20,000 nucleotides of DNA from Proteromonas lacertae (taxonomy: Eukaryota). The translations under genes were made by a program, and so were the position numbers. This document shows positions 1 to 20,000 of the stretch, piece by piece; position 1 is the first letter of the stretch, and every line of letters starts with the position of its first letter. The stretch lies in NCBI GenBank assembly GCA_002245135.1, contig NGBS01000603.1, forward strand, positions 122,980-142,979, written 5' to 3'. Below the pieces are notes generated by a model. The model had not been told where the DNA came from. It made no database searches and saw nothing but the letters and a program-made list of their open reading frames with translations.

Positions 1-206
1 TCTACATGAGATATGTATAACATAGCAGATATAATGGTTTCAAGATAAAAACAATAAATATTTAACTGCGTTGCATGATGTTTCTTCAAATATGCAAATT
101 AAATTTTGATGAGGTTTGAACAGATCGTGTTTTATTTATTTTGCGTTATAGATTATAGATCCACGATAATAAATTAAGTCATATAGAAATTTACATTAAT
201 TGAATC

Positions 207-1620
207 ATGATGAACTATAATTCCAACAAGAGCCATTCAAACTTTGAATCTCAAATTAAAAAGAAGAAAGTACAGAAAAAGGAAGAATGGAATCCATATC
301 AGCCACCACATCTAGTATATATTTATTTTATTTATCGTAAGATCATGAATTCGCGTATGGTTTTAATTCAACAATTAAACATGAATAAAGAATTATTGAG
401 TCCATATGTATCAGCAAGATCAAATAGAAAACCAAAGACGAAGATCAGGTCTTTACTGTGCCTGGTTACTGAAAAAGAAACAAATACACCAGGAGCGATG
501 CTTGGTCCATGTCGAACACACATTAAAAAGGATGGTGAAACCCAAACTGATAAAGAAGATTTCGAACGTAAAAGGTCATTTATTAAACAAATTACACCAA
601 GGAATGTTCGAGAAGCAAGAGAAAAGGAAGGAAGACTTGACGATTTTGCAGGTGAATTTGTACATAATTTAATCCCTGAAGTACTAGAAGAAATATACAT
701 TGAAAAAATAGATAAAATAGCCAAAATCACAATAGAAAATATAATACACAAATTAGAAGAAGAAGAAATTGATGAAGCAATTAAAATAGTTGTACCAGCC
801 TGTATAGATTCACTAATGACAGAAGTAATACAAATCCAAGAAGAAGAAGCTGCAGAAGCAGAAGCAGCTGAGTTAAAAAGATTAGAAGAAATCGATGATT
901 TACCAGGAAGAATAGTGAAAAGTATAGCAGGAATAGATATTTCTCATTATGTAAACGTTGGCGATTTTTCACCAATGACTCCAATTACAGAAAGAGATGA
1001 CTATGCGGATATGCAACCGAATGATATTCTTAAAGATCCAATCACAAGAGCATTTCTAAAAGCATATTTAATAAAGTGCTATCAAGAAGAATCAATAGTA
1101 TTTTGGGAGATTGTACATGAATTAAAGGATATTTCGAATAGAATTACTAAAAAGGAGAGGAAGAGATATTGTAAAGAGATATATGATACTTTTATTAGTG
1201 ATGGTTCGAAAATGGAGATTAATATAAATAGTGACATGAAGAATAGAATAAAAGAAACGTTGAAAAGAAATGGTGATGATGCTTCTATGTTTGATGATGC
1301 TGAAGATGAGATGGCAAAGTTGATTATTGCTAATAATTTCAATGATTTCAAGAAATCTGATTTTCATAAGAAATCAAGGGCAATTCAAAAATGGTTTTCT
1401 ATATTTCCAAAGTTTGATAATGATTTGAGTATTGCAATAGCTGAATCAATCAGTTATAGTCGTAGAACTGCATATATTGGACAATATTGTATATCTATTC
1501 ATTATTCTGTTTTCTATTATTATAGTCCCTCCTCCAAAGGATGTTGTATCTGAAACAAACAGAATTAGAAAGTTGATGGCTAGTTTGATGAGTTTCTTTG
1601 AAGATTTGTTTGGAGCGTAA
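207..1620 (+). CDS. RGS-domain protein, paralog 1 (spliced; last intron 1489-1525; possible small 5' intron 315-341)
   Basis: RGS box at ~1023-1370: DILKDPITRAFLKAYL..YQEESIVFW..EIYDTFI..GSKMEININS..MFDDAEDEMAKLI..NDFKKS. Removing GTATAT..TAG intron 1489-1525 gives GQY-FPPPKDVVSETNRIRKLMASLMSFFEDLFGA* (TAA 1618-1620), matching the paralog 2 terminus. 5' exon structure is uncertain. Confidence 0.85.
1489..1525 (+). other. Spliceosomal intron, 37 nt, phase 1 (position shared by all three RGS paralogs)
   Basis: GTATAT...TTATAG. Removal yields GQY-FPPP. The same junction occurs at 3460-3494 and 6017-6054. Confidence 0.85.
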
Positions 1621-2126
1621 ATTAATTATTATAATTAATATCTATTATACTGTATTCTTATCTATTGCTACATATATTTAATTTTGAAAAAAAAGAGCAC
1701 GATCTGAGTTCAGTTATAAGTTTTGTTATTTTATCAAAAATATTCTCGTCCTTCGATATTTTACCAATTAACAAAACAAATATATAATATTTAGACTTAT
1801 ATTTTTACTTATAAATGATATTAGCACATCCGCTTCAGTCATATCCCACATCAGAGAAAAGAAGAGGAGATAACACAGAGATCATCAAAAAATGATATTT
1901 ATCGAGTGAATTATATTGCTCCAGCACCATCGACTGTATTATTGACATACATTTTTCAATAGATAAACCAATATTGAGTTGTAGATCTAATAAAATAACA
2001 TAGGTAATAATAAGAAGTATCTTCTGTCATCACCAATACATTGTGGTAGAAAATCGGAATTATAGTCCAAGAATTTGTATAATTAAACATATTTATATAT
2101 TGTGATTTATAGTATCACCTGTTAGT

Positions 2127-3589
2127 ATGGATGTATCTACTAATACAAAAGGTCCAATGAAAGGAATGTGTAAAACACGAAGATATGTCTCTAATTGCAC
2201 TCAAACAAGTGAAATAGAATTTGAACCAATCGATTTATCTGTCAATACATCAAAACAAAATAGAAAGAGTAAATCAGATGACAATGATGCTGATAAAACA
2301 AATAGAAAAAGTGTATTAAGTGAAGAAGGTGATGAATATTCAAATATTACACCAATGCATCAACTCAAATTGAACAAAAAAGAGAATAATCAAAATGACA
2401 TGATGAGAAGAAGAAGAAGAAAGAGGAGAAATAGAAGAAATAAAAGAGGTTCTGGCTATTTATTAAGAAATGCAATCAACAATAGATATATGAAGTTACA
2501 GAAAAACAAAGATGGTCAATTTGTAGATGAAAATGGTAAAGTAGTTGAAGGAATTAAAGAAGGAGAAGATGGTAGAATATTAGTTGAAAAAGTTGGCGAA
2601 GATGGTAAAGTATATTATGAAGCAGAAGGATTTGAATATGAAGAAGAAGAAGATGAAGATGATGATAGAGGAGAAGAAGAAGATGATGATGATTTTGAAG
2701 GAAATGATGAATTTAATAAAGAAGGAAATGAAGATGATAAAAAAATAGAAACAGAAGTGAAGAAATGTATTGATTCAATGATTGATATAATTGAAAAAGA
2801 ATCGAAAAATACTATAAGCAATTCATTAGAATCCAGAGCTAGAAATAGTATTGCACATTTGAATTTCAATTATTTGGAGAAGTTGAAAATAATATCTGAG
2901 ACTGATTCACCATTTGCTAATTCTCCTTTATTATCACCAAATAATGGTACAGAATCAGATACTGATAAAAAAGATAGAACTGAAAAGTGTAATAAAATAT
3001 TAGCTGATCCAATATTAAGAGCATTTTTCAAAGCATATTTAACTAAGAATTTTCAAAGTGAAAGTATATTGTTTTGGGAAGCAATTTTTGAATTAGAAGA
3101 TATTGAAGAAAAGATAACTTCAGTTGAAAGAGTGAAATATATTAAAGAAGTGTATGATTTGTTTATTGAAGAAGGTTCTAAGATGGAAATTAACATTGAA
3201 CATGATTTAAGAAAGAAAATCGAAGAAAAAGTGAATGATAAAACTGATAAAGTTAGTGTTTATTCAGATGCTAAGAATGAGATAGCTAGGTTAATTATTA
3301 CTAACAATTATGAAAATTTCAAGAAAACTGACCTTTATAAACAAGCTGGAGCAATTGAGAAGTGGTTTTCAGTTTATTCGAAATTTGACCCTGATTTGAA
3401 GAAAGCTATCGCTGAACAGATGAGTCTTGTCAGACAAACTGTTTATGTTGGTGAATACTGTATATTTATTATTATTTTATGTATATTTCTATAGTCCCTC
3501 CTCCTAAAGAGGTTGTTGAACAAGATAGTGTGTTAAGAAGACTTATACGAGAATTACTTGATTTTTTCCAACATTTGTTTGGTAAATAA
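2127..3589 (+). CDS. RGS-domain protein, paralog 2 (spliced; last intron 3460-3494; true start probably upstream near 1815 via introns 1936-1962 and 2077-2112)
   Basis: RGS box at ~2994-3340: KILADPILRAFFKAYL..FQSESILFW..EVYDLFI..GSKMEINIEH..NYENFKKT. Splicing 3460-3494 gives GEY-FPPPKEVVEQDSVLRRLIRELLDFFQHLFGK* (TAA 3587-3589). An intron-like GTATAA..TAG at 2077-2112 joins an open upstream frame (..NYSPRI-LSPVSM). Further upstream the frame cannot be closed without assuming indels. Confidence 0.83.
3460..3494 (+). other. Spliceosomal intron, 35 nt, phase 1
   Basis: GTATAT...CTATAG. Removal yields GEY-FPPP. Confidence 0.85.
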
Positions 3590-3826
3590 ATGTATAATAT
3601 TATTGCATATAACATAAGTTGTATAATTGTATTGTTTTGTTGTATATATTCAAATAATGGTGTTTATAAAAGATAAATGATGACCATTATGCTAAAAACA
3701 AAATTGAATGTGTATTAAGATCTGCTAAAACCGCAGAAGTAACGATATTTCTTATTTTAATATTTTATTTGTAGATAATCTTGTAAAATAATATAAAGAG
3801 AATTCTCATAAAAGAACTATTCTTTA

Positions 3827-6236
3827 ATGAATAAGTCTAGGCGTTATCATCCAGACTCAATCCAATATCAACTATTGAAAGAGATAGAAGAAAGACAGAA
3901 AAGATCTAAGCAACAGCTTAATGCACTTTCACTTGTATTTTTTATTATTGCATCAAATAGAGTTCTAGTGTATCTGAATCATCTTTCGATTCAGGTAGGT
4001 ATGTTAGTAATAATACTCAATCTCCAATACATTATAGAAAACAAAAACCATATCCCAAAAGACAATGTATGTTTCTTGATTTTTTATGTATTTAGTGTCT
4101 CCCATCGGTTCTGTAAGAAGAAATGATAAAATGAGTAAAAAAGACGATGAAAGAAAGTATAACAAAGGAAATAATAAACTGGAAGTACAAACACAGACTT
4201 ATGCTGAAGATTTTGAAGAAGAACTTAATCAAAATAACATATGTGAAAATGAAGAATATGGAGGAAATATAGAAGAAGGTTGTTCACCTACAGAAGAAGA
4301 ATTTGTTGATGAAGATGATAATGAAATGAGTGATACTCATGCTACAGATATAAACCCTAAAAGATCATCCAAAATTGTTTCAAACAACTCAAATATTTCA
4401 TCTAAAAGAAATTCCCAATTATCAGTAAAGAGTAATTCCAGTCACCATAATAACAATACAATAACTCCCAAAAGAAAGTCAAATACATCACAAAAATCCA
4501 AATTAAATGAATTAGAAAAGGATGTAAAAAAAAGTAATAATAATAATATCAATAACAGTAATAATAACAAAAGTAGTGGTATAAACAATAATTCTAATTC
4601 AAACAAATCTAATAATGACACTTTCATAAATAATAATAGTCAAAATGATTATATTGATAATAGCAATAATAATAAGAATAAAGATGATGATAATAGTCGA
4701 CCTCAAAATATTAATAAAACAGAACAAATCAAATCAAATTCTGAAACAAAGCAACAACAACAACAACAGCAATCAAAAGTTGAAGGAAAATCTGAAGAAA
4801 AAGTAGAAAAACAAGATCCTGATGTATTGGAAGATTCCTTTGAGAATAATGATGATGATAATGATGATGATACTAAAGAAGAAGATAAGAATGATAAACC
4901 ACTGACAGATAAGGATTATGAAACAGTATGTAAATTATGTATTGAAGCAATGATCACTGAATTAATTGAAGATGAAAATGAAGAAGAAGAAGCTGATCCA
5001 AAAGTAGATTTATTGATTAATACTAATGTTGAAGTAGTGGATAATTCATTAAATAGTAGAATAAGAAAGAGTGTATGCGAAGTACAGAATGAATATTTGA
5101 ATAAAATTGACCAAATGCCAAAGTCAAGAAGAGCTTCAAAACTAACAGATGAAATTGAAAAGAAAGCAGCTGAAAGTAAAGCAGCAGCTGCTGCATCAAA
5201 AGAGAAAAAAGAAGTAAAAGAAGTAAAAGCAGAAGAAGCTAAAAAGGTCAATATTGATGATGATGTTGATGTATTAAAGAAAATAATGTCATTACCTCCT
5301 CCAGATCCGATGAGTGAAATTATAGTACCAAATAGTGAAGTTGATTCACAATCATCAGCACCTCCTGTTCCTCCAATAGCAATTAAACCAAATAAAAACA
5401 TACCGAAAGCCATGGATACTCCAATAATGGAAGAAGATGAAGATGATGAAGATTTACCTGATGAAGCTGAAGAAGTTGATGGAAATAAGAAATATGCTCA
5501 AGTATTCAATGATCCAATAACTAGAGCATTCTTAAAAGCGTATATGATTAAGAATTTTCAAGAAGAATCTATAATATTCTGGGAAACTGTGAAAGAGTTA
5601 GAAGATATTGCGAAGAGAATTACTAAACAACAGAGAAAGGATTATTGTCAAGAAATTTATGATAAATTCATAAAAGAAGGAAGTGAGATGGAGATAAATA
5701 TTATGGCAAGTCAAAGAATTAAAATTACAGATAGAATTAAGAAACATGTATTAATATATATATATATATATATATTATATGTTATTATTATTTATATAGC
5801 CTGGTCATGCAAGCATGTTTAAAGAAGCAAAATTAGAAATGGAGAAACTAATTGTGGATAATAACTACAATGATTTTCTTAAAAGTGAATTCAATACAAA
5901 AGCTAAAGCTATTAATGATTGGTTTAGTGTATTTAGCGAATTTGACGATGAATTGAAAAAAGCAATTGCAGAAAAAGTATATCAAATTAGAGGTACTACG
6001 TATCTGGGTCAATATTGTATATATATATATATTATGTTATATTATATTATATAGTCCCTGCACCAACTGATGAAAAACAAAAGAAATCTAATTTAAGTCA
6101 GTTGAAAAGTTCATACTGTATGTATAGTGATACTCAGAGTATGAGTTCATTTATGTCCACAAGCACTTGGGATTCAGAAATACCTTCTACTCCTGCTGAT
6201 TTGCCAAGAAGTATAAGAATTGCTGGATTTAATTAG
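3827..6236 (+). CDS. RGS-domain protein, paralog 3 (exons 3827-3934, 3961-4066, 4096-5747, 5800-6016, 6055-6236)
   Basis: Four GTAT..TAG introns (26, 29, 52, 38 nt) join the ORF-track fragments into one open frame. RGS box ~5499-5900: VFNDPITRAFLKAYM..FQEESIIFW..EIYDKFI..GSEMEINIM..KKH-PGHASMFKEAKLEMEKLI..YNDFLKSEF. Long Asn/Gln/acidic low-complexity N-terminal half. Confidence 0.88.
4535..4772 (+). repeat. Coding low-complexity AAT/CAA-rich tract (poly-Asn then poly-Gln) in RGS paralog 3
   Basis: SNNNNINNSNNNKSSGINNNSN..., followed by KQQQQQQQS. Confidence 0.7.
5748..5799 (+). other. Spliceosomal intron, 52 nt, inside the RGS box of paralog 3, containing a (TA)n tract
   Basis: GTATTA...TATAG. 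Removal joins IKKH to PGHASMF, colinear with LKRNGDDASMF of paralog 1. Confidence 0.85.
6017..6054 (+). other. Spliceosomal intron, 38 nt, phase 1
   Basis: GTATAT...TATAG. Removal yields GQY-FPAP. Confidence 0.85.
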
Positions 6237-6384: not shown

Positions 6385-9300
6385 TTATAATTTAGAAGAA
6401 TCATCAACCACATCATTCTGATCAATCTCTAGTTCATCCAACACATTTATTACAACATTCGTTTTTGGAATTGATTTAACAGATTTTGCAAAATTAGAAC
6501 TTCTATGAGAAGTATGAGACAAATAATTGTCACTATTGGTTGATAATCTTGTTTTAGAACCATTATAAATACTATTTGCAGTAAAATAAAACACATCTGC
6601 GGCTGATATAGTACATAAGCTAATATCACCTACTTCAAATACATTTGGTCTTAATTTGAATCTTCCTTTTTCAACTCCTTTTCTGGCTATACTTTTACTT
6701 TGTTTAGAATTAGTTGAATTTGAACTTGCTGAGGATGAGCCAATTGTTGTGGTTGTGAAATAATAAAAGAATATCTTTAATTTTGAAGCAAATTGTAAAA
6801 CTAAAACAGCTATTACACCCAATTCTACACCTATTCCTCGTAACATCATTAAAGTATCAGGTTGTTTAGCCATCATTAGATTCAATGGAATTTCTAATAT
6901 TCCAACAATAACTATTAAATTATATAAACAATAAAAATAATATACTCATTATTCCTATTATTGAAGCTAATGTCTTTGATTCATTGAATTCGGATGAAGC
7001 TTTTCTAGTTTTCCATGCTAATCTTGCACCAAATAAAAACATCACTATTACTACACCTATTTCGATAAATGTAAATATATCATTCTCACTACATTCTCGA
7101 ATATAAACATCTTCTAAATAATTCGAATAATCCATACTATAAGTTTCAGTATAAAGAGATGGATCTATTACCCACCACACTGTCAAATAGATTATTTGAA
7201 CTGATTCTATACCTCCGATTATTTCTAGTAACATATAATTCGATATTTTTACTTTCCTCATCTCTTTATTATTAAACAATTTGTGTATTCTCCATGCTTT
7301 ACATAACAATATTCCAAACAAGAAATCAACTGATAAAGCAACTAACCATACTCTTAAAGCGCAAATCACATCATTTGGAGCTACTGTGAATATATATCCA
7401 GATACACTTAACATTATTAAAGATACTAATGTATAAGATAAAAATAAAGGTGAAGATGCTTTGATTATTTTCAAATGTCGATAACTTAATACACAAACTA
7501 AAGTAACTATTGATATTAGAATCAATATTATCATTAAAACCATTACCAAGATTTTTAAAACTTCATTCTTTTCATATAATACTTTCGTTTTACCCATCTC
7601 ACATTCAAAATTCTTCATATATGTCATTTGAGGCTCTAATATCTCTTCTTTTCCTTGACTTGGATATACTTTTGATAATTGTCCACTCATTATTCTGAAT
7701 AAATAGATTGGCTTTGTTACATGATTATTATATTTTACTACCAATTTACCACTTGGACTGTTGAATGATACATATTTCAAACTCATTTGTTTATATCTTT
7801 TACTTGGCCATTGTTTTGTATCTTTCAATCCTTCTTGTTCAGCTGCATATTCAATCCCAGATTTCCATAAATATAACGATGAATAACTCACTTCATACAT
7901 CTCATTCAAACTGATTGCATTTTGGAAATACGATTTCACTGTTTGAATAAACGCTTCTGCTTCAGTTGATGTTAATGAATCGGTAAATGATGTGGCTATA
8001 TAATTACCAGATATTTCCTTCAAATTATCTTTACTATAATCAGATTCATCATAGTTGATTAAAACAAATAAAAACGATGATTCAGACATTCTTGATTTCT
8101 TGAAATGTCCTATATATTCATTATTATCTTTTCCTCGAAATAGATTAAGAACAGCAAAAGATTTATAAGTTGAGGCAAGGGATGTTAAAGTATCATATAG
8201 TTTAGGATAAGAATTAGTATTATAGGCAGAAAACATGTATTCACCAATATATTCCATCGATTCATCTTTACAATATCTCTTTATATAATCAGCTATTACT
8301 AAACTAGAATTATCAATATTTCCTAATACAAATATGTATTTTGACCCTGTAGATTTTAAATAGTTTATTGTTCCTTCGATCTTTTGATTTATTGACATTC
8401 CCATTGATATTATGGATGGTGAACATAAATTTCCATCATCAGTACCAAGGAAGAAGAATTGAAAATCACTATCAACTGCACTTATATATCGATTTACTTC
8501 ATCTCGACATTTAGAACTCATACAACCAAAGATTCCAACTGCATTTGTTTCTTGATCTATTCTTCTAACTGTTGAATATATCTTACTTTGAGTCATGAAA
8601 TAATGATCACCTATTATTTTTCTTCCATTTACACCTCCTTCTGAATTGATTTTTTCAATTGTCATATCTTGAATTAACAGATTCTGTTGTTCAGATTTAC
8701 CACCTAAATCTATTTCATGTAAAAAGGCTATATGGATTGGATTTATATCAAATTTTTCGGATTTTTCAGTTTTCCAATCACATCGAAAACCAACATCTTC
8801 TCCTTCCATTTGATTATATATATCTGCTTCTATTGATTTCGAAGGCATCCAGTTTATATATACTTCATTATTTTCATTTATATAACCACTATATACATTT
8901 CTTTTAAAAACATGATTCACTGATAATTCGATATTTCCACTTGGAACATCCAATTGATAATCATATTTCAATTCTACTAATTTAGGATCTATTGAATTCG
9001 AATTTTGACAGATATTTTTCCAGTAAAATAACAATGCATATGCACTTTCATATTCACTTCTTATCTTCATTTTATCACCTATGTGAATATGTAAATCTTT
9101 AGAAAATGTAGAAGCTAAAGTAGGAATTCTAACTGAAGAAAATCTATTCGATTCGATTGATTCAAAATAACTACCAATCACTCTATGTCCAAATAAATAT
9201 TTAGATTCAAAATCATTCAGTATATTCTCATCAAATAATGCATTATAAACTGTATATTTTGGATATGTCAAACCTAAGTCATACATCGCTTTATAAAAAT

Positions 9301-12300
9301 GAATAGAATATTCTTTACTTTCAAAAGTTGCTATTATATATCCACCATCTGGTATTGCTTGTTGGATTGTTCTTAATTGGGAATTTCTCTCTTTTAAATC
9401 ATATCTTATATTACCCATCAATAAGATATTTGTGTAACTCATTCTAGATTGAATCATATCATTCAAATAAGTTGTATAATTAGATGGAGAATAAACTGTT
9501 ATGGCTGAACTACTATCTTCTAATATTCTTCTTACTGTCATTGTAGCTATTTGACTTGGATGTAATTCACTCACTATTACATTCTTTGGACATATTTTAC
9601 TGTATGTATGACCACAGAAGAAGAATATTTTATTCTTATCTTTCATCTCATTCGCGATTATTGGATAATCATCTGGCTCATATCCACCAAATATATAATC
9701 TATTCCATCTTTTTCTATTTCTTCGAATATTGATTTATAGTTTTTTGAATCAGATTTTACATCATATAATTTATAATACAATTGATAACTAAGTAATGGT
9801 TCTTTTGTATTTAAGTAAGTTACACCAGCTAAAATTGAATCAAATATTGGCTTTTCCAAAGCAGAATTACAACCAGTTATTGATATCACAACTCCTATTC
9901 TATAAGTAGATAATGATTTACCATTTCCTATAGTCAAATCATTGAAATTACAAACATAATAATTTCCATCACTTGTCATTTTATATGCTTTAGGATATTC
10001 CATTCTTTTTGCATCATATTCCAACTTCCATTCATTTTTCTTATTCTTATATGAAATCTTCATGATTCGACCTAAATATTGATTTACTCCATATCCTATA
10101 AACCCTTCTGGTAAATTCATCGCTTCTTGATTTATTAATTCTTTTCGAACTGATTTTCGATTGAAATCTTTTGTTTTATTTACAGCTTTGGACCATAGCT
10201 TTATTGAAGAATATAATCCAGATAATATATCATTTATAAATACTTCATTCTTATTCAATCTTTCATAAGCGTTTTTAACAAATTGTTTGTTAACTTCACT
10301 TTCATCTTCTAAATAATAACTCTGAATTACTTCATAATCATTGTAGTTTGATAATAAGATTGTCGATGGTGGATCTGCTATTATTATGTGGATTTGTTTT
10401 TCATTCAATTCAGATTTCTTTATTTCGTCTATCAAATAATCATAATCCAATAAATAACCACTGAATATTATACAAATTTCACTATCTCCTTTCATATATC
10501 TTTTGATTCTTTTGATTTCTTTAGATATTTCATCATATGATTTACAAACTATAGATTTTTCATTAAATCTATTCAAATATTCATTTATATAATCACCAGA
10601 GTCAGAATCAATAGATTTGGGAAATGCAATTAAAAATTCATCATAATTTCTATTTCTCAACACATTCAATACTGGATCATATAAACTAATATGATCATTA
10701 GAAGTAAATATATGTTCTTCACAACTTCCTATCGGGTATTTAAACACATTAAACAATATCAAATCATTTTCTTTTATATAGTCACTGATTCGATTTACAC
10801 ATTCTAAACTTTCAGAAAAAAATATCACTTTTGGTTTAAAGTCATTAATACTGTTCATAAGTATATCACCACAGTTTTCTAAATCAGATAATATATCATA
10901 AATAGCTGTTTCTAATTCTATTCCATTTATTCCACCATTATTATTTATTTCTTCTATTGCCATTTTGAATATATCAATTTCACCTTTGTTCAATTCACCT
11001 AATTCACCAGATAAAGAGGAAACTAATAATACTCTTTCAGCTTCTATAGAATATTGACTCTTATTCACTGATGGAGCAAATGAACACATCATTCTAAAAG
11101 TCTCAGGAATATCCCAACTCCAAGGTCTTGGATTTTCATACTTTGACTTAGAATACAACAATGAGAATTTCCCATTAGAGTCAAATTTACCAATATTGAA
11201 CGGAGATGAACGATAATGACTTACATCAAATACAAATTCACCTAATGCATCATGCTTTGATACTTCTAATAGCTTCTCTCTTACTACATCAGTATCAAAT
11301 GTTTTCGCAGATTTTACTGCTTCTATCCACATTTTTATACCTACATTCGCTGTGTTTGTAAGAGCTGTTGGTTCACTTATATAAGCATAATTATTCATCA
11401 CTTTCTTAAACTCATCATTCGAGTCAGTATTAACATCAGAGAAATATTCAGCTACTATAAATACATTCTCTTTTATTGAATTTATAAATCCATCATATTT
11501 ATCAATTGGAGATCTTGTATCAACAAACATATATTTCGATTTATCAAAACCAATATCATTCACTGTTATTAGCAGTTTCTTTAGCAAATTTGAATCACTG
11601 ATTGTGAATAATACTAAACCCCCTCCATCCATTTTGTTAATCAATGATTTCACTTTATCATTTTCAATACCAATTGATGAATCAATTATATAATTCCCTT
11701 TATAAAAATACATACCTGCACCTTGAGATTCAGTTATAGATGATATTGTATTACATTCTTCTTTGTCTTCAGTTATTGATACTATGCTTGAAACAGTAGT
11801 TTCAGATATAAAGTATTCTAATATTTGAGGAATATATTGATTGGGTAATGGACCTAAATAGAATGTATCATAATCACATTCTTGACCATAAAATTTATCA
11901 ACATAGAAGAATAAAATATAATGTTTCTTACACACTTTTTGAACTATTGTCTTACATTCTATATCTGTACATCCGATTGTCATTTTCAAATCAAATTCTG
12001 TAATTTTTGAATCTAATTCATTCTCAAATATAGTTAAATCAGGATTATAATCAATAGATATAGGTAATATCAATTTGTTCAATATCAAGCCTTCTTCTAA
12101 CTGTTGATGCAATGCAGATAAAGCACCATATAATGATTTCTTATGTAAATCTCTTTTAACACCATTAACATCATATATCAAACCAACTGTCACAAATTCA
12201 TATTCATCGTATTTATTATTTTCTATATCACATCTTTGTAAATTGGTTCTTTGAAATAATCCTAAATATCCATTGTTTATAACTGGATAGGAAAATTTAT

Positions 12301-15300
12301 AATCAGCTGTTAATAATATTTCACCATCATCACTAATTGTTTTAGTAAAGATCTTAAATGAAGAATCAACATGATTATTACTTCTAAACTGCACATTACT
12401 CACTATTGTTTCTACTGAAGTGTTATAAACTAATGATTTAAAGGCATCTCTATCAAATGATCCTTTTATCTTTAATAATTGACATAAATGGTCAAAACTT
12501 CCATAAGCTCGAAGAACTGGTCTGGAAATATCTTCAAAAAAGGTATATCTACTATAGAATCTACCTTTCAATTTATTTATCATGGCAATAGATCTTTCAT
12601 CATCAGGATTTTCAGTATCAACATAATAATGACCAATAAATTTATCACCCAAATCCAATATTTGTTTTTGGCTTAAAACTGTATTTAATGTCACATATTC
12701 TGGAGGTTTCATGTCTAATTCATTCATCACTTCGATTAAAGCTTGAGCAGATGGACCTTCAAGCATTGATACTATTAATGCTCCATTTCCTGTTTTTCTT
12801 TGAATTAAAGTTACTAGATTCTTTAAGTCAGAACAGCCAAGTGGAATGTCTAATTCATAATCAAATGAATCATAAAACATTGATAAATCATATTTTATTT
12901 TATTGGTTAATGTTTCAGAATAAACTGTTCGGGAGTGGATTAAAACTTTCTTATCTTTTTGATGATCTCTTATCCAGTATAACAATATTGACTAACAAAA
13001 ATATAATTCATTTATATAGAGTATAATATATATACATAGGAATTAGCTGGTAAACCATAATAAAAACATTTTGATAAACATTCACCTCCTTCATAATCAT
13101 TTGGAACTAATAATGTTCCATTCATTTCCTTTAATACTTCATTTATCGCTATTCTAATACTCTTTTCCCAACCACCAAAATAATAGGTTATTTCGTATTT
13201 TTTAAATACTTCTTTTATTCTTTTTTTGACTGTTTCTTCATCATCTCCATCTGTAAATACATATAGTAGAATCTTTTTACCATTTACTCCTCCATTATTA
13301 TTATAATCAGTTACAGCTGTTTCTAAACCAATTAAATATCTAATTGAACTTTGGAAATATTCATCTTTGTAGGGAAGTATTACTCCAAACATTTCGGCTG
13401 AAACTAAATACTTTTCTCCTAAACCATCTCTCCAGTTACATTCATATAGTTCAGATGGATTGAATTCTAAATAGTAAGATTTTGGTTCATAAGATTGAGT
13501 AATTACACCTTCAAAATCAATATTTCCACTATTTTCATTTATTCTACCTATAAAAAATGGTAAATACATTCGATTATTTGGATCAAATGAAGTATTTCCC
13601 AATATGTAGGCAGTTCGACTATTATATACTTGTTTTCTTATATCTCCTACATTAAATGAATTACTTTCTTTAAGTATTTTTGATAAGTGTAATGTGATTG
13701 TATAGATAGAAGCATCATAAAAATTGGGAAATATATCATATCTTGAATTTGCATTTTGAAATAATTCTACATATCTCATGCTTTCCACATTAATATTATT
13801 AATAAATGAACTAATAACATTAATACCTCCACCATTCACATTATCAAAATGACTATGGGATTGATCATACAAATAAATTGAATAGGTATTGACACATTCT
13901 TCTCTAGATTCAAATCTTTTACAAATTTTATTATTATATGCTTCAAATAACATTTCAGTTACTTTGGATGTAAAGAAAGCAATTATTTTACCACCATCAA
14001 TCATCAGAAAATAAGATTTTACAATACAATCATACATATCTTTTACTGTATTTCTTGGACTTACTTTACACGATAATACAATTTCACTGTCAAATGCATT
14101 TAACATTGACTTCAGTATTTTTACTCGACTATCATAAAATCCATCATCATAGTATATAATTGACATTTTGGTTCTTTTCAATGTAGATAAGTATATTCCA
14201 AATGGATATATCTCTTGATTTGGTGTTCCAGTTGCATAGTATATTGCTTCTTCACAAGTATTACCAATAGAATTTGCTGTATAAAAGAACAAAATATTGC
14301 TGCTAGACAGTGAAGGAACCATGTAATTCTTTGTATTATCATTACATCCACCTATTATTAAATCAATTCCTCTTTTTTGTAATCTAATGACAAGATCAGA
14401 TGCTTTTTCTTGATCAGATGGACAATCATGTAATTCACTTCTTATATATCTATTCTTTATACTTGATTCATCATTGATTTGAGATCTTAATTGAATTATT
14501 GAAACATAACTATAGAAGTAATGTTCTTCTTTTATATTGCTTATATCCAATACATAAGCTATTCCTATCATTTCAATCTCTTTCATTACTTTTGCAGGTC
14601 GAATTGAATAATCACTATCAACATATACATTATTATGAATTAAATATAAATATGGTTCTGGCATTATTGGATTTTCTATCTCAGCATAAAGAATATTAGA
14701 ACCTTTCACTTTCTGTATTGCGTAAATTGGAAAACTCATATAGTTATTTTTGAATAGTGTTGTTTTACCTAATGGAGATGAAACTGGATGAGAATAGAAG
14801 TAATTTCTCAAATTAAATACACTGTTTCGATCAATACCTTCATTTAAGGCATTTTTCATCATTATTAAAGAAATATAAAATGAAATCTGCATATTACTCA
14901 ATAATGAGTTTGAATCTCCTTTATAAGTGTCAATAAATTTCTTTAATTCTTTATTCTCTTTATTATCTAATCCAATAAAGTAACAAGAAGCAAAATATAA
15001 TCCTTCGGCATTTGTTTTATTCTTAAACATTGTTTCTACACAATCAACTACATAGATTGATATTTTATTTTTTGGATAATCTTCTTTAAATGTTGAAATA
15101 AATGTTTCAGTATAATTATCTATTGATAGATACAAAAAGTAATCAACATAATCTGGTTTTGTTATATTCTCTATCTTTTCACAAATGTCATTCCAATCAT
15201 CATTAAATGGATCTACATCAATTCCATATGTATGTCCTTTCACAGATTTAGCTAATTCTTCTGCATATTTGAATGAGTTTATTGAATCTCTACAACAAAT

Positions 15301-16039
15301 ATTAAAATAAGATTATAAATATATATACTGACTATTTGATAAATAAACAAATAATATTGTTTGATTCTTAGCTACTTGAGTTAAAATATTCCATTCTAAT
15401 CTTTGATTAGGTATTGTGTTTATCATTAGTATATTCTCATATGAAACTTCTCCACCTGATGGAGATAATGAGAATAATAATTTCTTTTGATTTACCAATA
15501 TATCAGCTATTGTATCTCTTTCTTCTTTCCATTGACTTCCACAATAACATAAAATATCTTCTTTATCTTTACCTAATTCTGTTACTTCTTTCTTCAAGTT
15601 CTTTCAATGTTGAATAATGGATATATTCAGGTAAGATTTCTCTTCCACCTATTCCACCATCTTGATTAATCATATCAAATATAACTGTATAATAATCCAT
15701 TAAGGTATTATCATCACTTGAATATCTATTATAAACCATTACTATTTTATAGGAATTGAATTTTGATATTATAATTTTATCTTTTGAATATTCACAGGTT
15801 AATGATTTGTTATAAAATGAATAAACTCTTTGATTAGATAGTTGATTCAAAATATTCTCTGATTTTATTGGATATATTGAACTTTTCACTTGAAACATTC
15901 CTAATTTGCCTTGAGCAAAACCATTATAATATACTTCATATTGATTATATGCAGGATTTTTAACTGATTGATGGTATATATAATTCTTATAAACTGATGG
16001 TAAAAAAGAGGAAGATGATTCGATTGACTAGTATAAAGA

Positions 16040-16075
<36 letters not shown>

Positions 16076-18176
16076 TTGAATAAGTAATGAAAATAGATTA
16101 TGAATTAAACCAAGTTGAGTGAATAAAGGATTTGTTCTTCTGGTTATTTTAAACATATCATTTCTAAATGGATCTAAGATTGTGAATTCATATTAGTGTT
16201 ACTGTGACCAAGAAATATAACATCATTATACATATCAACTTTAGGATTATGTCTATTTTCATCAAGAGTAAGTTCATCAAATAAGTATGAAATAATTGTA
16301 AAGTTATTTGAATAAGGTCATTCCTTTATCATAAAAAGTAGGAAATAAAATATCAAGGAATGTCTTTTTAACAACTAAAATGATTGCTGTTCTGTTATAT
16401 TCACCTATGGGCATTTCATTTATTTGTTTTGTTATATTAATTGCTTCATCTTTACTTGCTTTTAACATATCATAATATCCTATTTTCACTTTACTATATC
16501 CTCTGGAATTTAATTCTTCTGTTACGATATTTCGACTAGTTTTACCAAAAAATAAAGTTGCACCAACAATAAATACTCTATCATAATTGTTTTTCAATAT
16601 ATATTCAGCTGTTAATGAAGCATATGAACTTGTTATAAAATCACCAAATATCACATTCTTGAAACATCTTTCACCTGGAGTTTGACCTATATAGAATAAT
16701 TGAATATCATAATCATATAAAGCATCAGAAAATTCAACCATTTTCTCATAATCAACAACTATGAAGATTGTATGAAGATAAGATGTATGGTAAAATTCTA
16801 ATATTTCATTTACTACATCATTTGTCTTTCTACTTACATCTAAAATCAATTGAGTTAATTTTCTTCCTATTACATAACCAGCTTCAGATATCATTTTGTC
16901 TATATACAATCTAATAAATTTGTTTTTATAAGTAGACGTGTCTAATATAAAACCAATTGGTAATGAATCAACTGTTGATATTCCATCAATTGGATTTGAT
17001 TTAAAATTACATGCTTGTTGTTTCGATTATACCATAATAACCACTCACTTCAAAATCAATATCATATGGAATAGTAAATGTTTGTACATATTTTCCTGTT
17101 GTACCAATAATTGTACAAATTGACATTGATAAAGTAATGAAGTGATTTGGTAAAATATACAATTCACCACCTGGATATGGTAATGGTTTGTTATACATAA
17201 ACGGTAAAAGATATTTTATCTTAGTGGTTGGATATTTCTTGCTTGGTTTCAACAAATCCATCTAACACACCTGCTAATACAGCATATTCATACCCTGAAG
17301 CGTCATCAAATATTGAAGTGTAATTATTTTGATATTCTTTTGTTATGATTAAGCCTTCTTTACCTGTATAACCAGTAATTAACATATTATAAACATTGTA
17401 ATCTCCTATATCAGGCTCACTAAATTTATTATAGTCTAAAAATCCAGGCAAATAGTATATTGGATATTTATCTGATGTTTCTGATATGGATGTGAGAAAA
17501 TCTTATTCTTCTCTTCAGAATTTTAGCAATTTTATTACTATCACTTACTCCCATTAGCGTTACAACAGTTGAAGTAATTCTTACTAATTGTTTTACTCAA
17601 ATACTCTTCTATTACCTCATCAGTCAGGGTTACATTTGACGAATAGATTATTTTTACTCCAAATAAGCTAGCTGTTGATGTGAGTCGGTCTAAATAGAAA
17701 CTGTCTATTTCAGAACCACTATCAAACACAAGACTCACATTACCATCATAATTAATTCCTATTTGAGTGAAAACTATAAATGAGAATAGAATAATATTAT
17801 TATCATACCATTTTCGATAAGTGGTATAACCGACACACCACTTATGATACTTCTTGAGCATCTACCAACACTATATGCATTAGTACACATCACAAGTATT
17901 TTAGTATTAACTAAAGCATCTGCCTTGAGAGTTGTAAACATCATTGTTACATCTCATCACAATCATTTCTATTCCATCATCCTCTGCATTGTTAAATTCA
18001 TTGGAATAATCATGAGAATTATCATCGATTAATGAGAGTAATGTCGAAGAGTCGGATGATAAACATTGTAGGGCTTCAGAAAGTCAGTATAAATTTGGTC
18101 GTTTGCATTACCTAAGTAGGCTATTTTAGGTACATTTAAATTTTACCAGGAGGCTTAAGAATAATAAAAATAGCAT
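6385..18176 (-). CDS. Giant class C (GABA-B-like) GPCR with signal peptide, nine tandem UrtA/AmiC-like periplasmic-binding domains, 7TM and Ser/Thr-rich tail (spliced; 5' third interrupted by small indels)
   Basis: In-frame introns at 6912-6945, 12992-13035, 15290-15328, 16028-16075 and 17774-17808 join ORFs 6385-6885, 6920-12985, 13012-15243 and upstream fragments. Class C 7TM motifs IIKASSPLF, KAWRIHKLF and LAWKTRK..EFNESK. Repeated INxxGGxxG and LFFY..G..C...G..PNQ motifs about every 1.15-1.2 kb. Putative start ATG at 18176 (MLFLLFLSLLVKFKC, then KIAYLG after an indel). The start position is less certain than the rest. Confidence 0.85.
6780..7565 (-). other. Class C 7TM domain (7tm_3-like) of the giant receptor
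   Basis: Seven hydrophobic segments from VLKILVMVLMIILILISIVTLVCVL to GIGVELGVIAVLVLQFASK. TM3-start Cys (DVIC) and ECL2 Cys (IRECSE). TM3 Lys (KAWR) and TM6-proximal Glu (NESK) typical of class C receptors. Confidence 0.9.
6912..6945 (-). other. Spliceosomal intron, 34 nt, within TM6 of the GPCR
   Basis: GTATAT...AATAG on -. Removal gives IIGIM-IIVGILEIPLNL, restoring TM6 and TM7 in frame. Confidence 0.85.
12992..13035 (-). other. Spliceosomal intron, 44 nt
   Basis: GTATAT...TGTTAG on -. Joins GLPANSY to SILLYWIRD, linking the 743-aa and 2021-aa ORFs. Confidence 0.85.
16028..16075 (-). other. Spliceosomal intron, 48 nt, mostly a (TA)n microsatellite (16044-16074)
   Basis: GTATATATA...TACTAG on -. 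The downstream exon is in frame with ORF 15569-15898. Confidence 0.8.
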
Positions 18177-18770: not shown

Positions 18771-20000
18771 CTAAATATTTTTCTCATCACAACTAAAGAC
18801 ACTACCAACATAACTAAAGGATAAAAGTACCATTAAATGGTGTATAACATACTTTGTATTAGCTTCATTAACCTTCTTACCAACTACATGAAAACGACAA
18901 GTTTCAGTAACATAAACTTTTATCCAACTTCCAACTTTATTTTCTTCATCAATATCAACTAATACTTTAATATAGCTCTTAGTATGACAAACATTATGCT
19001 TTCCATCAATTTCATTTGAAACAAATACATCTAAATATTTATGTAATAATCCTTTATAAGGTAAATATTGATTAAATAATGCACTAATTTCTCTACTTCT
19101 TTCTTTTACTATTTTTCTATCAACTCTTTTCATTAAAGCACCTGGAGTAGCCTTTACGTGGATAATATTGAGATATATTGACAATAGGAAATTCATATTC
19201 TTTTAGTAGATTAACACTCTCTCTATGATCTTCTTCTGTTTCACCACCTAAAACCACAGATTATATCAGTTGCAATAGTGATACCTCCTTACTTTACTAA
19301 TCATATAATCAACCAAATCTCTGAATAATTCTATTTTATATTGTCTATTCATTAATTCTAATACATTATTACTTCCTGATTGAACTGGAATATGTAAAAA
19401 TGAGGAAAACTTCTTGGATGATTCAATATCTCAGCCATTTCTTTTTTGTATTTAGCTATATATGGTGGATTTGTCATTCCTACTCTTAACATCATATTCT
19501 AATAACAATAATAATAATATATTACATTTATAAGTATATACATCTGGTAATAATTTAATAATTTCTTTCAATAATGCAGGTAAATTAGTTCCAATATCTT
19601 GACCATAAGCACCAGTATCTTCACTACTAATCCATATCTCACTCACTATCCCTTTCTTTAACTGTTTCTTTTACTCTATCCAATATCATTTTCTGGCGGA
19701 TAACTCTTCAAAGTACCTCGTGCAAATCTAGTTTTACAGAATGTACACTTTCCTAAACATCCACTGGATAGAATAAGTATTTCTACTTTTTCATTTTTTC
19801 TTACTTTTGGAAGTATAAGAGATGGATTTTTTCTTGTTTCATATATTTTGTATTGTATTACCTTTCAATGTTTCTTCTACAACTTCAACAACTCTGTCAA
19901 TTTGATGAGTCCCAATTGTTGATAGATTCTTTAATACCTCTATACTTCGATCAGCTTGAGGAACAAACCACAAATAATTACTTTTTTGTTCTTTTGTTTG
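18771..20000 (-). CDS. CDKAL1: Threonylcarbamoyladenosine tRNA methylthiotransferase (CDKAL1/e-MtaB; radical SAM + TRAM), 5'-truncated by the window edge, with introns and several frameshifts
   Basis: Radical-SAM motif [16 protein letters not shown] (CxxxCxxC at 19736-19759), [28 protein letters not shown] (after intron 19499-19541), [33 protein letters not shown], and TRAM-like [20 protein letters not shown]. Confidence 0.88.

Follow-up and report, generated by a model that had tools for sequence, protein, structure and literature searches.

Gene structure of the receptor

The window examined here, a 20,000-nucleotide stretch of the Proteromonas lacertae genome (GenBank assembly GCA_002245135.1, contig NGBS01000603.1, positions 122,980 to 142,979 of the forward strand), carries on its minus strand a gene for a G protein-coupled receptor (GPCR) of class C that has nine tandem flytrap modules of the UrtA type. 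An earlier note on this DNA had proposed one minus-strand protein of some 3,800-3,900 amino acids (aa); spliced, and with its breaks bridged by X, the receptor comes to 3,851 aa (about 3,850 aa), of which the ectodomain takes up about 3,470 aa in modules of ~385 aa. The features, including periplasmic-binding-protein type I (PBP-I) modules, transmembrane helices (TM), the seven-helix domain (7TM) and parts modelled with AlphaFold2 (AF2), are as follows.

18176-6385, minus strand: whole receptor gene (signal peptide, nine modules, class C 7TM, tail)
18147..18176, minus strand: exon 1, carrying the start codon and the likely signal peptide's hydrophobic core
16964..18118, minus strand: module 1, UrtA-derived PBP-I, the most diverged; six internal frameshifts; intron 17808-17774
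15752..16963, minus strand: module 2, intron 16075-16028 and two frameshifts; one fragment matches Peripla_BP_5 at E 1.1e-6
14569..15751, minus strand: module 3, intron 15328-15290, with the final frameshift near 15592; Ser in place of both conserved cysteines
13393..14568, minus strand: module 4, Peripla_BP_5 E 5.4e-15; TIGR03407 E 1.2e-9
12194..13392, minus strand: module 5, intron 13035-12992; candidate ligand site, pocket conserved above background
11036..12193, minus strand: module 6, Peripla_BP_5 E 1.1e-27; AF2 and Foldseek
9905..11035, minus strand: module 7, Pfam and AF2; pocket positions hypervariable across homologues
8738..9904, minus strand: module 8, Peripla_BP_5 E 1.6e-24; AF2
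7568..8737, minus strand: module 9, membrane-proximal; without the urea pocket; likely adaptor to the 7TM
6780..7567, minus strand: class C seven-helix domain (7tm_3), with a 34-nucleotide (nt) intron, 6945-6912, in TM6
6385..6779, minus strand: Ser/Thr-rich cytoplasmic tail and stop codon

The nine ~380-aa repeats of the earlier note are borne out by nine matches to a hidden Markov model (HMM) built from homologous repeats, which score 28, 81, 142, 165, 197, 255, 188, 274 and 205 bits for modules 1-9 in order (28-274 bits, all independent E-values (iE) <= 7e-11). Their regular spacing, put at 1.13-1.22 kb, is 1,131-1,212 nt (377-392 aa) from first strand to first strand in repeats 2-9. Module 1 is the weakest of the nine by HMM and yet genuine: scored alone it reaches 39.4 bits, against a maximum of 1.1 across 500 shuffles, and it matches residues 79-382 of the homologue P0005 by phmmer with an iE of 6.8e-11. 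No credible Pfam match was found in the cytoplasmic tail.

The window has a GC content of 20-32%, with short GT-AG introns and long open reading frames (ORFs) in the standard code; an alternative genetic code was rejected, as a 2,023-aa ORF is open in the standard one. Six introns were counted where five had been claimed: 18146-18121 (or -18112), 17808-17774, 16075-16028, 15328-15290 (or 15332-15288), 13035-12992 and 6945-6912. From 15591 to 6385, three of them (15328-15290, 13035-12992 and 6945-6912) join 3,029 codons with a single terminal stop and zero indels. Repeats 4-9 and the 7TM are indeed free of indels, as previously stated, but the clean stretch is longer than had been given, since its 3,029 aa take in most of repeat 3. 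The alignment to homologues is gap-free over the module 5 and TM6 intron junctions, and nearly so at the module 3 junction.

Integrity of the 5' end

The upstream part, 18176-15592, requires three further introns and ten frameshifts to be bridged. Its exon 1 N-terminus aligns with the hydrophobic N-terminus of P0005, and the frame from exon 1 to exon 2 holds only across one indel at the signal-peptide donor; the exact N-terminus and the signal peptide are thus a putative reading across that indel. In P0005, one ORF of 3,244 aa begins with a hydrophobic N-terminus, contains modules 1-9 and ends in intron-like sequence; it is collinear with the window receptor from its start through module 9 (3,227 columns, 28% identity). 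A separate 5' gene at 15.6-18.2 kb, which the earlier note had allowed for, was rejected: P0005 carries modules 1-9 in one ORF, and therefore modules 1-2 are not a gene of their own.

The ten frameshifts fall within 2.6 kb, against none in the following 9.2 kb, which is what would be seen if the gene were decaying at its 5' end or gave only a shortened receptor with six to seven modules; shorter members are known, for example P0041 and P0051 with two modules each. We nevertheless regard a truly broken 5' end as very unlikely. The broken part holds 811 codons with zero nonsense codons, where 6% of point changes would create one, and its codon-position GC (0.348/0.300/0.175) is that of the clean ORF (0.348/0.299/0.172). 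The neighbouring gene at 18771-20000 on the minus strand, which served as a control for assembly error, encodes a MiaB-like-B tRNA methylthiotransferase of the CDKAL1 type. It is equally broken, lying in nine stop-free pieces with eight frame changes, of which one is explained by an intron and seven, in about 0.7 kb, are not. For these three reasons the 5' frameshifts are probably consensus or assembly errors. P0005, moreover, is intact and collinear, and a hydropathy scan found no signal-peptide-like hydrophobic stretch within the clean part from which a shorter receptor could start. Weighing the other way, the zero-nonsense argument is weak if substitutions are only about three times as frequent as indels (P=0.16).

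UrtA ancestry and fold of the modules

The modules derive from the bacterial urea-binding protein UrtA, within the UrtA/AmiC branch that binds urea and amides. Pfam places Peripla_BP_5/6 in repeats 2-9, the domains that the earlier note had expected beside 7tm_3, and module 1 was recovered with the homologue-built HMM; ANF_receptor had no Pfam match on the window ORFs. TIGR03407 (urea_ABC_UrtA) was the best NCBIfam match for four of the four window modules tested, at 37.6-87.2 bits, far below the curated cut-off of 492.75 bits. Structure models cover modules 6-9 and TM1-5. The AF2 model of modules 6-8 has a predicted local distance difference test score (pLDDT) of 90.0 and a predicted template modelling score (pTM) of 0.85, and that of modules 8-9 with TM1-5 reaches 92.7 and 0.85; both contain complete two-lobed domains. 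Foldseek ranks 1-10 for the first model are UrtA and then AmiC, with target-normalised TM-scores (TMt) of 0.81-0.86, and the top matches for the module 9 and 7TM part of the second are GABA-B receptors and UrtA.

The flytrap assignment of the earlier note therefore stands as to PBP type I, which the AF2 models and Foldseek bear out for modules 6-9, but the modules are not of the ANF type found in mGluR and GABA-B, since Pfam, NCBIfam and Foldseek all point to the UrtA/AmiC branch. Ancestry from ANF/LIVBP flytraps was rejected because Pfam never returned ANF_receptor and the top Foldseek matches were UrtA and AmiC.

Of two cysteine columns, one is retained in 93% of 138 repeats and the other in 99% of 135. 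Because these near-invariant residues vanish together in window module 3, we suggest one disulfide per module. The modules are predicted by the models to be packed in a defined arrangement on one another and on the 7TM.

The seven-helix domain and the flanking RGS genes

The GABA-B-like 7TM that had been proposed holds up, with a 7tm_3 match of 146.7 bits (curated cut-off 33.5) and GABA-B receptors at the top of the Foldseek list. TM1-5 were modelled, and alignment together with hydropathy places TM6-7; six of the seven helices were flagged in the hydropathy scan, TM4 lying under the threshold. According to the alignment, the domain retains the cysteine pair between TM3 and extracellular loop 2 (ECL2), K-x-S in intracellular loop 1 (ICL1), K-x-x-R in TM3 and F-N-E at ICL3/TM6, which are class C motifs. 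No Pfam match to the cysteine-rich NCD3G domain was found, and in the AF2 model module 9 leads straight into TM1.

On the plus strand at 204-6236 lie three tandem units with an RGS domain (Pfam RGS); after each of them comes an intron in an identical position, then a short exon that resembles those of the other two. They are probably three paralogous genes, and no obvious frameshift was seen in the stretches inspected. The units end 148 bp from the receptor stop, tail to tail; that regulators of G proteins adjoin a GPCR may be chance.

Relatives and history of the array

A full HMMER search gave 3,862 matches at E<=0.001, of which the best 150 were examined further. The family sample comprises 157 sequences: these 150, six later ones and the window protein. 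Among them, at least 30 proteins, the window receptor included, combine a 7TM with two or more modules; at least 21 others carry two or more modules but lack a 7TM, many of these ending in intron-like sequence. Two relatives reach nine modules uninterrupted, namely P0203 (JGI; 3,909 aa, signal peptide, 7TM) and P0003 (Logan; 3,745 aa, first module partial). Both sequences are probably transcripts, because their contigs barely exceed the ORF. Capsaspora CAOG_05347 (P0038), with three modules, and KAJ3101170.1 (P0051) of the chytrid Phlyctochytrium bullatum, with two, also belong to the family, and the closest homologues of the window receptor among the matches listed come from Logan. Class C receptors with UrtA modules thus appear to form a widespread eukaryotic family with two to nine modules.

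Other searches added little. The window ORF drew no match in a word-index search for homologues, and a profile search of longer proteins gave five matches of which only P0001 is in the family. With P0001 as the query, the ESM Atlas yielded only class C clusters that have a single flytrap and are 700-950 aa long. A search of sequencing runs listed none that contain the gene, a result that says nothing about its expression. A metagenome scan found one unrelated, intron-containing class C receptor gene (L001, 874-4368).

Several proteins with other layouts were also noted. P0204 (EukProt; 2,216 aa) interleaves pairs of a sensor and a degenerate UrtA module with Ephrin_rec_like repeats and has a membrane region other than 7tm_3; it appears to carry the sensor-plus-degenerate two-module unit on another receptor body. 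In P0100 (JGI; 1,604 aa), which has no 7tm_3, about 800 residues separate two UrtA modules, both of them with perfect pockets. In P0056, P0088, P0138 and P0207 a class C 7TM is combined with TIG repeats, VWA_N/Cache, LamG/Ig, or PBP_like_2 and RGS, which agrees with the diversity already known for class C receptors outside the metazoans.

Within the window receptor, the modules are only 11-17% identical to one another, for which reason recent tandem duplication or concerted evolution was rejected; identity to same-position modules of close homologues is 18-44%. A tree of 134 repeats, from which 17 partial ones were left out, clusters the modules of the window's AT-rich clade largely by position and places window module 1 as sister to module 1 of P0005 with a support of 0.88. 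When raw identity is compared, modules 1 and 4 of the window receptor are slightly closer to other positions of P0005, and the tree puts some of the modules of P0031, P0018 and P0027 away from their positions. Because modules group by position, the array is older than the expansion of the window's clade. A 7TM tree (FastTree, midpoint-rooted, 115 rows) sets this clade apart from P0003 and P0203, whose modules pair by position in the repeat tree only at 1, 5 and 9; the nine-module layout may have arisen once or twice.

Ligand pockets

The UrtA pocket comprises W120, S122, Y141, Q144, E146, Y190, F192, N246 and S274, four of which form hydrogen bonds with urea, according to PMC10392092. Judged by sequence, the urea pocket has been lost in all nine modules of the window receptor, each of which retains 0-3 of the nine residues and at most one of the four hydrogen-bonding ones. 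The pocket is kept in P0203, where seven of nine modules have all four hydrogen-bonding residues and seven have 8-9 of the nine pocket residues, and in P0003, where both hold for five of nine; one further P0003 module is partial and keeps the three hydrogen-bonding residues visible.

The membrane-proximal module has 0-3 of the nine pocket residues in all 20 proteins of the comparison that possess one (some partly covered), and only 0-2 in Capsaspora, the chytrid and P0026; it is degenerate in every member checked, even those with perfect distal pockets. In the chytrid receptor the distal module has 7/9 pocket residues and the proximal one 2/9, and the two distal misses lie in a stretch that looks mis-spliced. 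Among complete copies in the window's subfamily, module 9 is the best conserved (40% to P0001, 35% to P0002). The membrane-proximal module is likely an adaptor to the 7TM.

A test of pocket conservation spanned modules 4-9, modules 1-3 having too few homologues. Only module 5 lay above background, with a pocket identity of 0.56 versus 0.30 among eight close proteins (p=0.003, uncorrected) and of 0.37 versus 0.23 among 17 proteins (p=0.02, uncorrected). The pocket columns of modules 4 and 6-9 are no more conserved than background (p>=0.2), module 7 standing at 0.12 versus 0.32, so that the nine active sensors assumed earlier do not find support. In the close set, module 5 has Trp in 6/6, Asp in 6/6 (Gln144 column), Glu in 6/6 and Glu/Asp in 7/7 (Asn246 column), and the two residues that contact the urea oxygen are variable. 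Since two carboxylates replace amide acceptors, which is a chemical argument only, the pocket suggests a cationic ligand (guanidinium, amidine or amine).

Proposed function

We propose that the window receptor would be a small-molecule sensor in which module 5 binds the ligand and the other modules relay its closure to the membrane helices, a proposal whose chances we put at about even. The following hypothetical scheme goes with it; we infer every step beyond the architecture and the pocket sequence. (i) The basic unit would be a UrtA sensor, a non-binding adaptor and the 7TM, as in the two-module chytrid receptor; (ii) the arrays would have multiplied the sensor modules; (iii) the window lineage would have re-tuned module 5, with Asp for Gln, Glu/Asp for Asn and a loss of the contacts to the urea oxygen; (iv) the order would run from the sensor module or modules through relay modules and the adaptor to the 7TM; (v) activation is assumed to be class C-like, with clamshell closure, dimer rearrangement and G-protein coupling. 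Relatives with an intact urea pocket would be urea sensors, in which many equal sites could provide avidity or a graded response to urea. A broader proposal is possible but falls somewhat short of an even chance: the family would be an undescribed group of urea- or amide-sensing GPCRs that arose from a captured bacterial urea-binding protein, with up to nine modules above a non-binding adaptor acting as a rigid-chain relay for ligand closure distant from the membrane, and one lineage would have preserved the scaffold of nine modules and spread it over many paralogues, their pockets re-tuned to new ligands.

Several points weigh against the first of these proposals. The p-values for module 5 stay below 0.05 only in the close set when multiplied by six, the proteins compared are related rather than independent, and window module 5 itself departs from the subfamily consensus at Tyr141 (Val) and at the Ser274 column. 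In modules 6-9 the low pocket conservation might stem from ligands that diversify between paralogues and not from dead sites. The defined packing has pTM as its sole basis, and a relay through four intervening modules is without direct precedent, relatives of the bacterial sensor BvgS reaching five modules. Finally, the class C TM7 motif is F/Y-x-P-K, and TM7 reads FASKL in the window and P0002, with the proline lost, and FVPKF in P0003.

Alternatively, the receptor might be an antenna for several ligands, with most modules active, each tuned to its own small molecule, and the signals integrated. The modules have each kept their own identity, being so dissimilar to one another and yet grouping by position, all modelled modules keep the two-lobed fold, and in the close subfamily module 9 carries an alternative residue set that is conserved in part, with Arg in 7/8 at the Gln144 column. 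Position-specific conservation is, however, equally explained by inter-module interfaces, and pocket columns at or below background in modules 6-8 are unexpected for a fixed ligand per position. We therefore consider the antenna unlikely, and a sensor with relay modules fits better.

Less probable still is that the ectodomain serves as a structural stalk for adhesion, contact or mechanical sensing, with small-molecule binding vestigial. The loss of the urea pocket from all nine modules would agree with this, as would the 19 N-glycosylation sequons of the ectodomain and a conservation that declines from proximal to distal (41% to 18% versus P0005), as in surface-exposed stalks. Against it, module 5 retains its Trp, Asp, Glu and Glu/Asp at exact pocket positions, and relatives with the same nine-module layout retain full urea pockets.

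The family is of interest beyond this gene. How class C receptors are activated is understood for subunits with one flytrap, and a nine-module ectodomain raises the question of signal transfer across many domains, for which the family offers a natural series of two to nine modules. The relatives with intact pockets supply a cheap, named candidate ligand, urea, and the two-module chytrid receptor is small enough for expression. With this family, class C receptors have independently captured a bacterial binding protein once more, and urea biosensors could use its members as scaffolds.

Comparison with known systems

Bacterial-type binding domains on non-metazoan class C 7tm_3 receptors have been reported (Krishnan 2012, PMC3251606; de Mendoza 2014, PMC3971589; Seppala 2016, PMC5168858). 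In the portions of these sources available, the 2014 supplement lists '/Peripla_BP//7tm_3/' without copy number (PMC3971589), CAOG_05347 is in the 2012 dataset (PMC3251606), and the longest N-termini given in the surveys are 1,667 aa (PMC3251606) and 1,600 aa, with neither tandem copies nor UrtA ancestry mentioned. The window ectodomain is about twice the longest found there in print (about 3,470 versus 1,667 aa). The combination of a periplasmic-binding domain with 7tm_3 was hence already catalogued in 2012 and 2014, and UrtA-type arrays are apparently undescribed. The earlier note knew of no receptor with this architecture; likewise, our literature search, with subscription journals thinly covered, found no published account of it, of multi-module or UrtA-type class C receptors, or of a eukaryotic urea-sensing GPCR, nor support for a receptor like the window's in Blastocystis. 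It also took in accessible parts of PMC12842992, PMC8687355, PMC12965686, PMC4758236 and 10.1101/2024.02.22.581678. One supplement file of PMC12716839 (journal version of 10.1101/2025.04.15.649019) gave no match, and the domain tables of that study could list such proteins.

GABA-B and other metazoan class C receptors (PDB 9jr0, 7c7s, 6wiv) resemble the window receptor in the 7tm_3 domain, as best Foldseek match, and in a PBP-I domain that runs into TM1 without NCD3G. GABA-B, mGluR, CaSR and T1R, however, have a single ANF-type flytrap per subunit instead of nine Peripla_BP_5-type modules, and mGluR, CaSR and T1R carry before TM1 the NCD3G that is unmatched here. The ectodomain appears to be seated differently from that of GABA-B, because the model of module 9 with the 7TM superposes on it with a query-normalised TM-score (TMq) of only about 0.3 and a root-mean-square deviation of about 24 Å.

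UrtA (TIGR03407; PDB 7s6e, 7s6f, 8hic, 8tg1) and Pseudomonas AmiC (1pea) share fold and profile match with the modules, and cyanobacterial UrtA has the ECS...CDW cysteine pair in common with them. UrtA is a single soluble subunit of an ABC importer, whereas in the window receptor it is multiplied and fused to a GPCR, with its nine pocket residues lost.

The BvgS family of Bordetella would be the closest mechanistic analogy. Its flytraps belong to the type II binding-protein class, unlike the window modules. The output is a bacterial histidine kinase behind at most five modules, in contrast to 7tm_3 behind nine. According to PMC4352136, the family has one to five tandem flytraps, with a mobile distal module and a closed proximal one that strains the membrane helices.

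The relatives P0203, P0003, the chytrid P0051 and Capsaspora P0038 share with the window receptor the tandem UrtA-type modules, the degenerate proximal module and 7tm_3. They differ from it in their near-bacterial UrtA sequence, in a urea pocket that is kept in all but Capsaspora, and in 7TMs that fall outside the window's 7TM clade.

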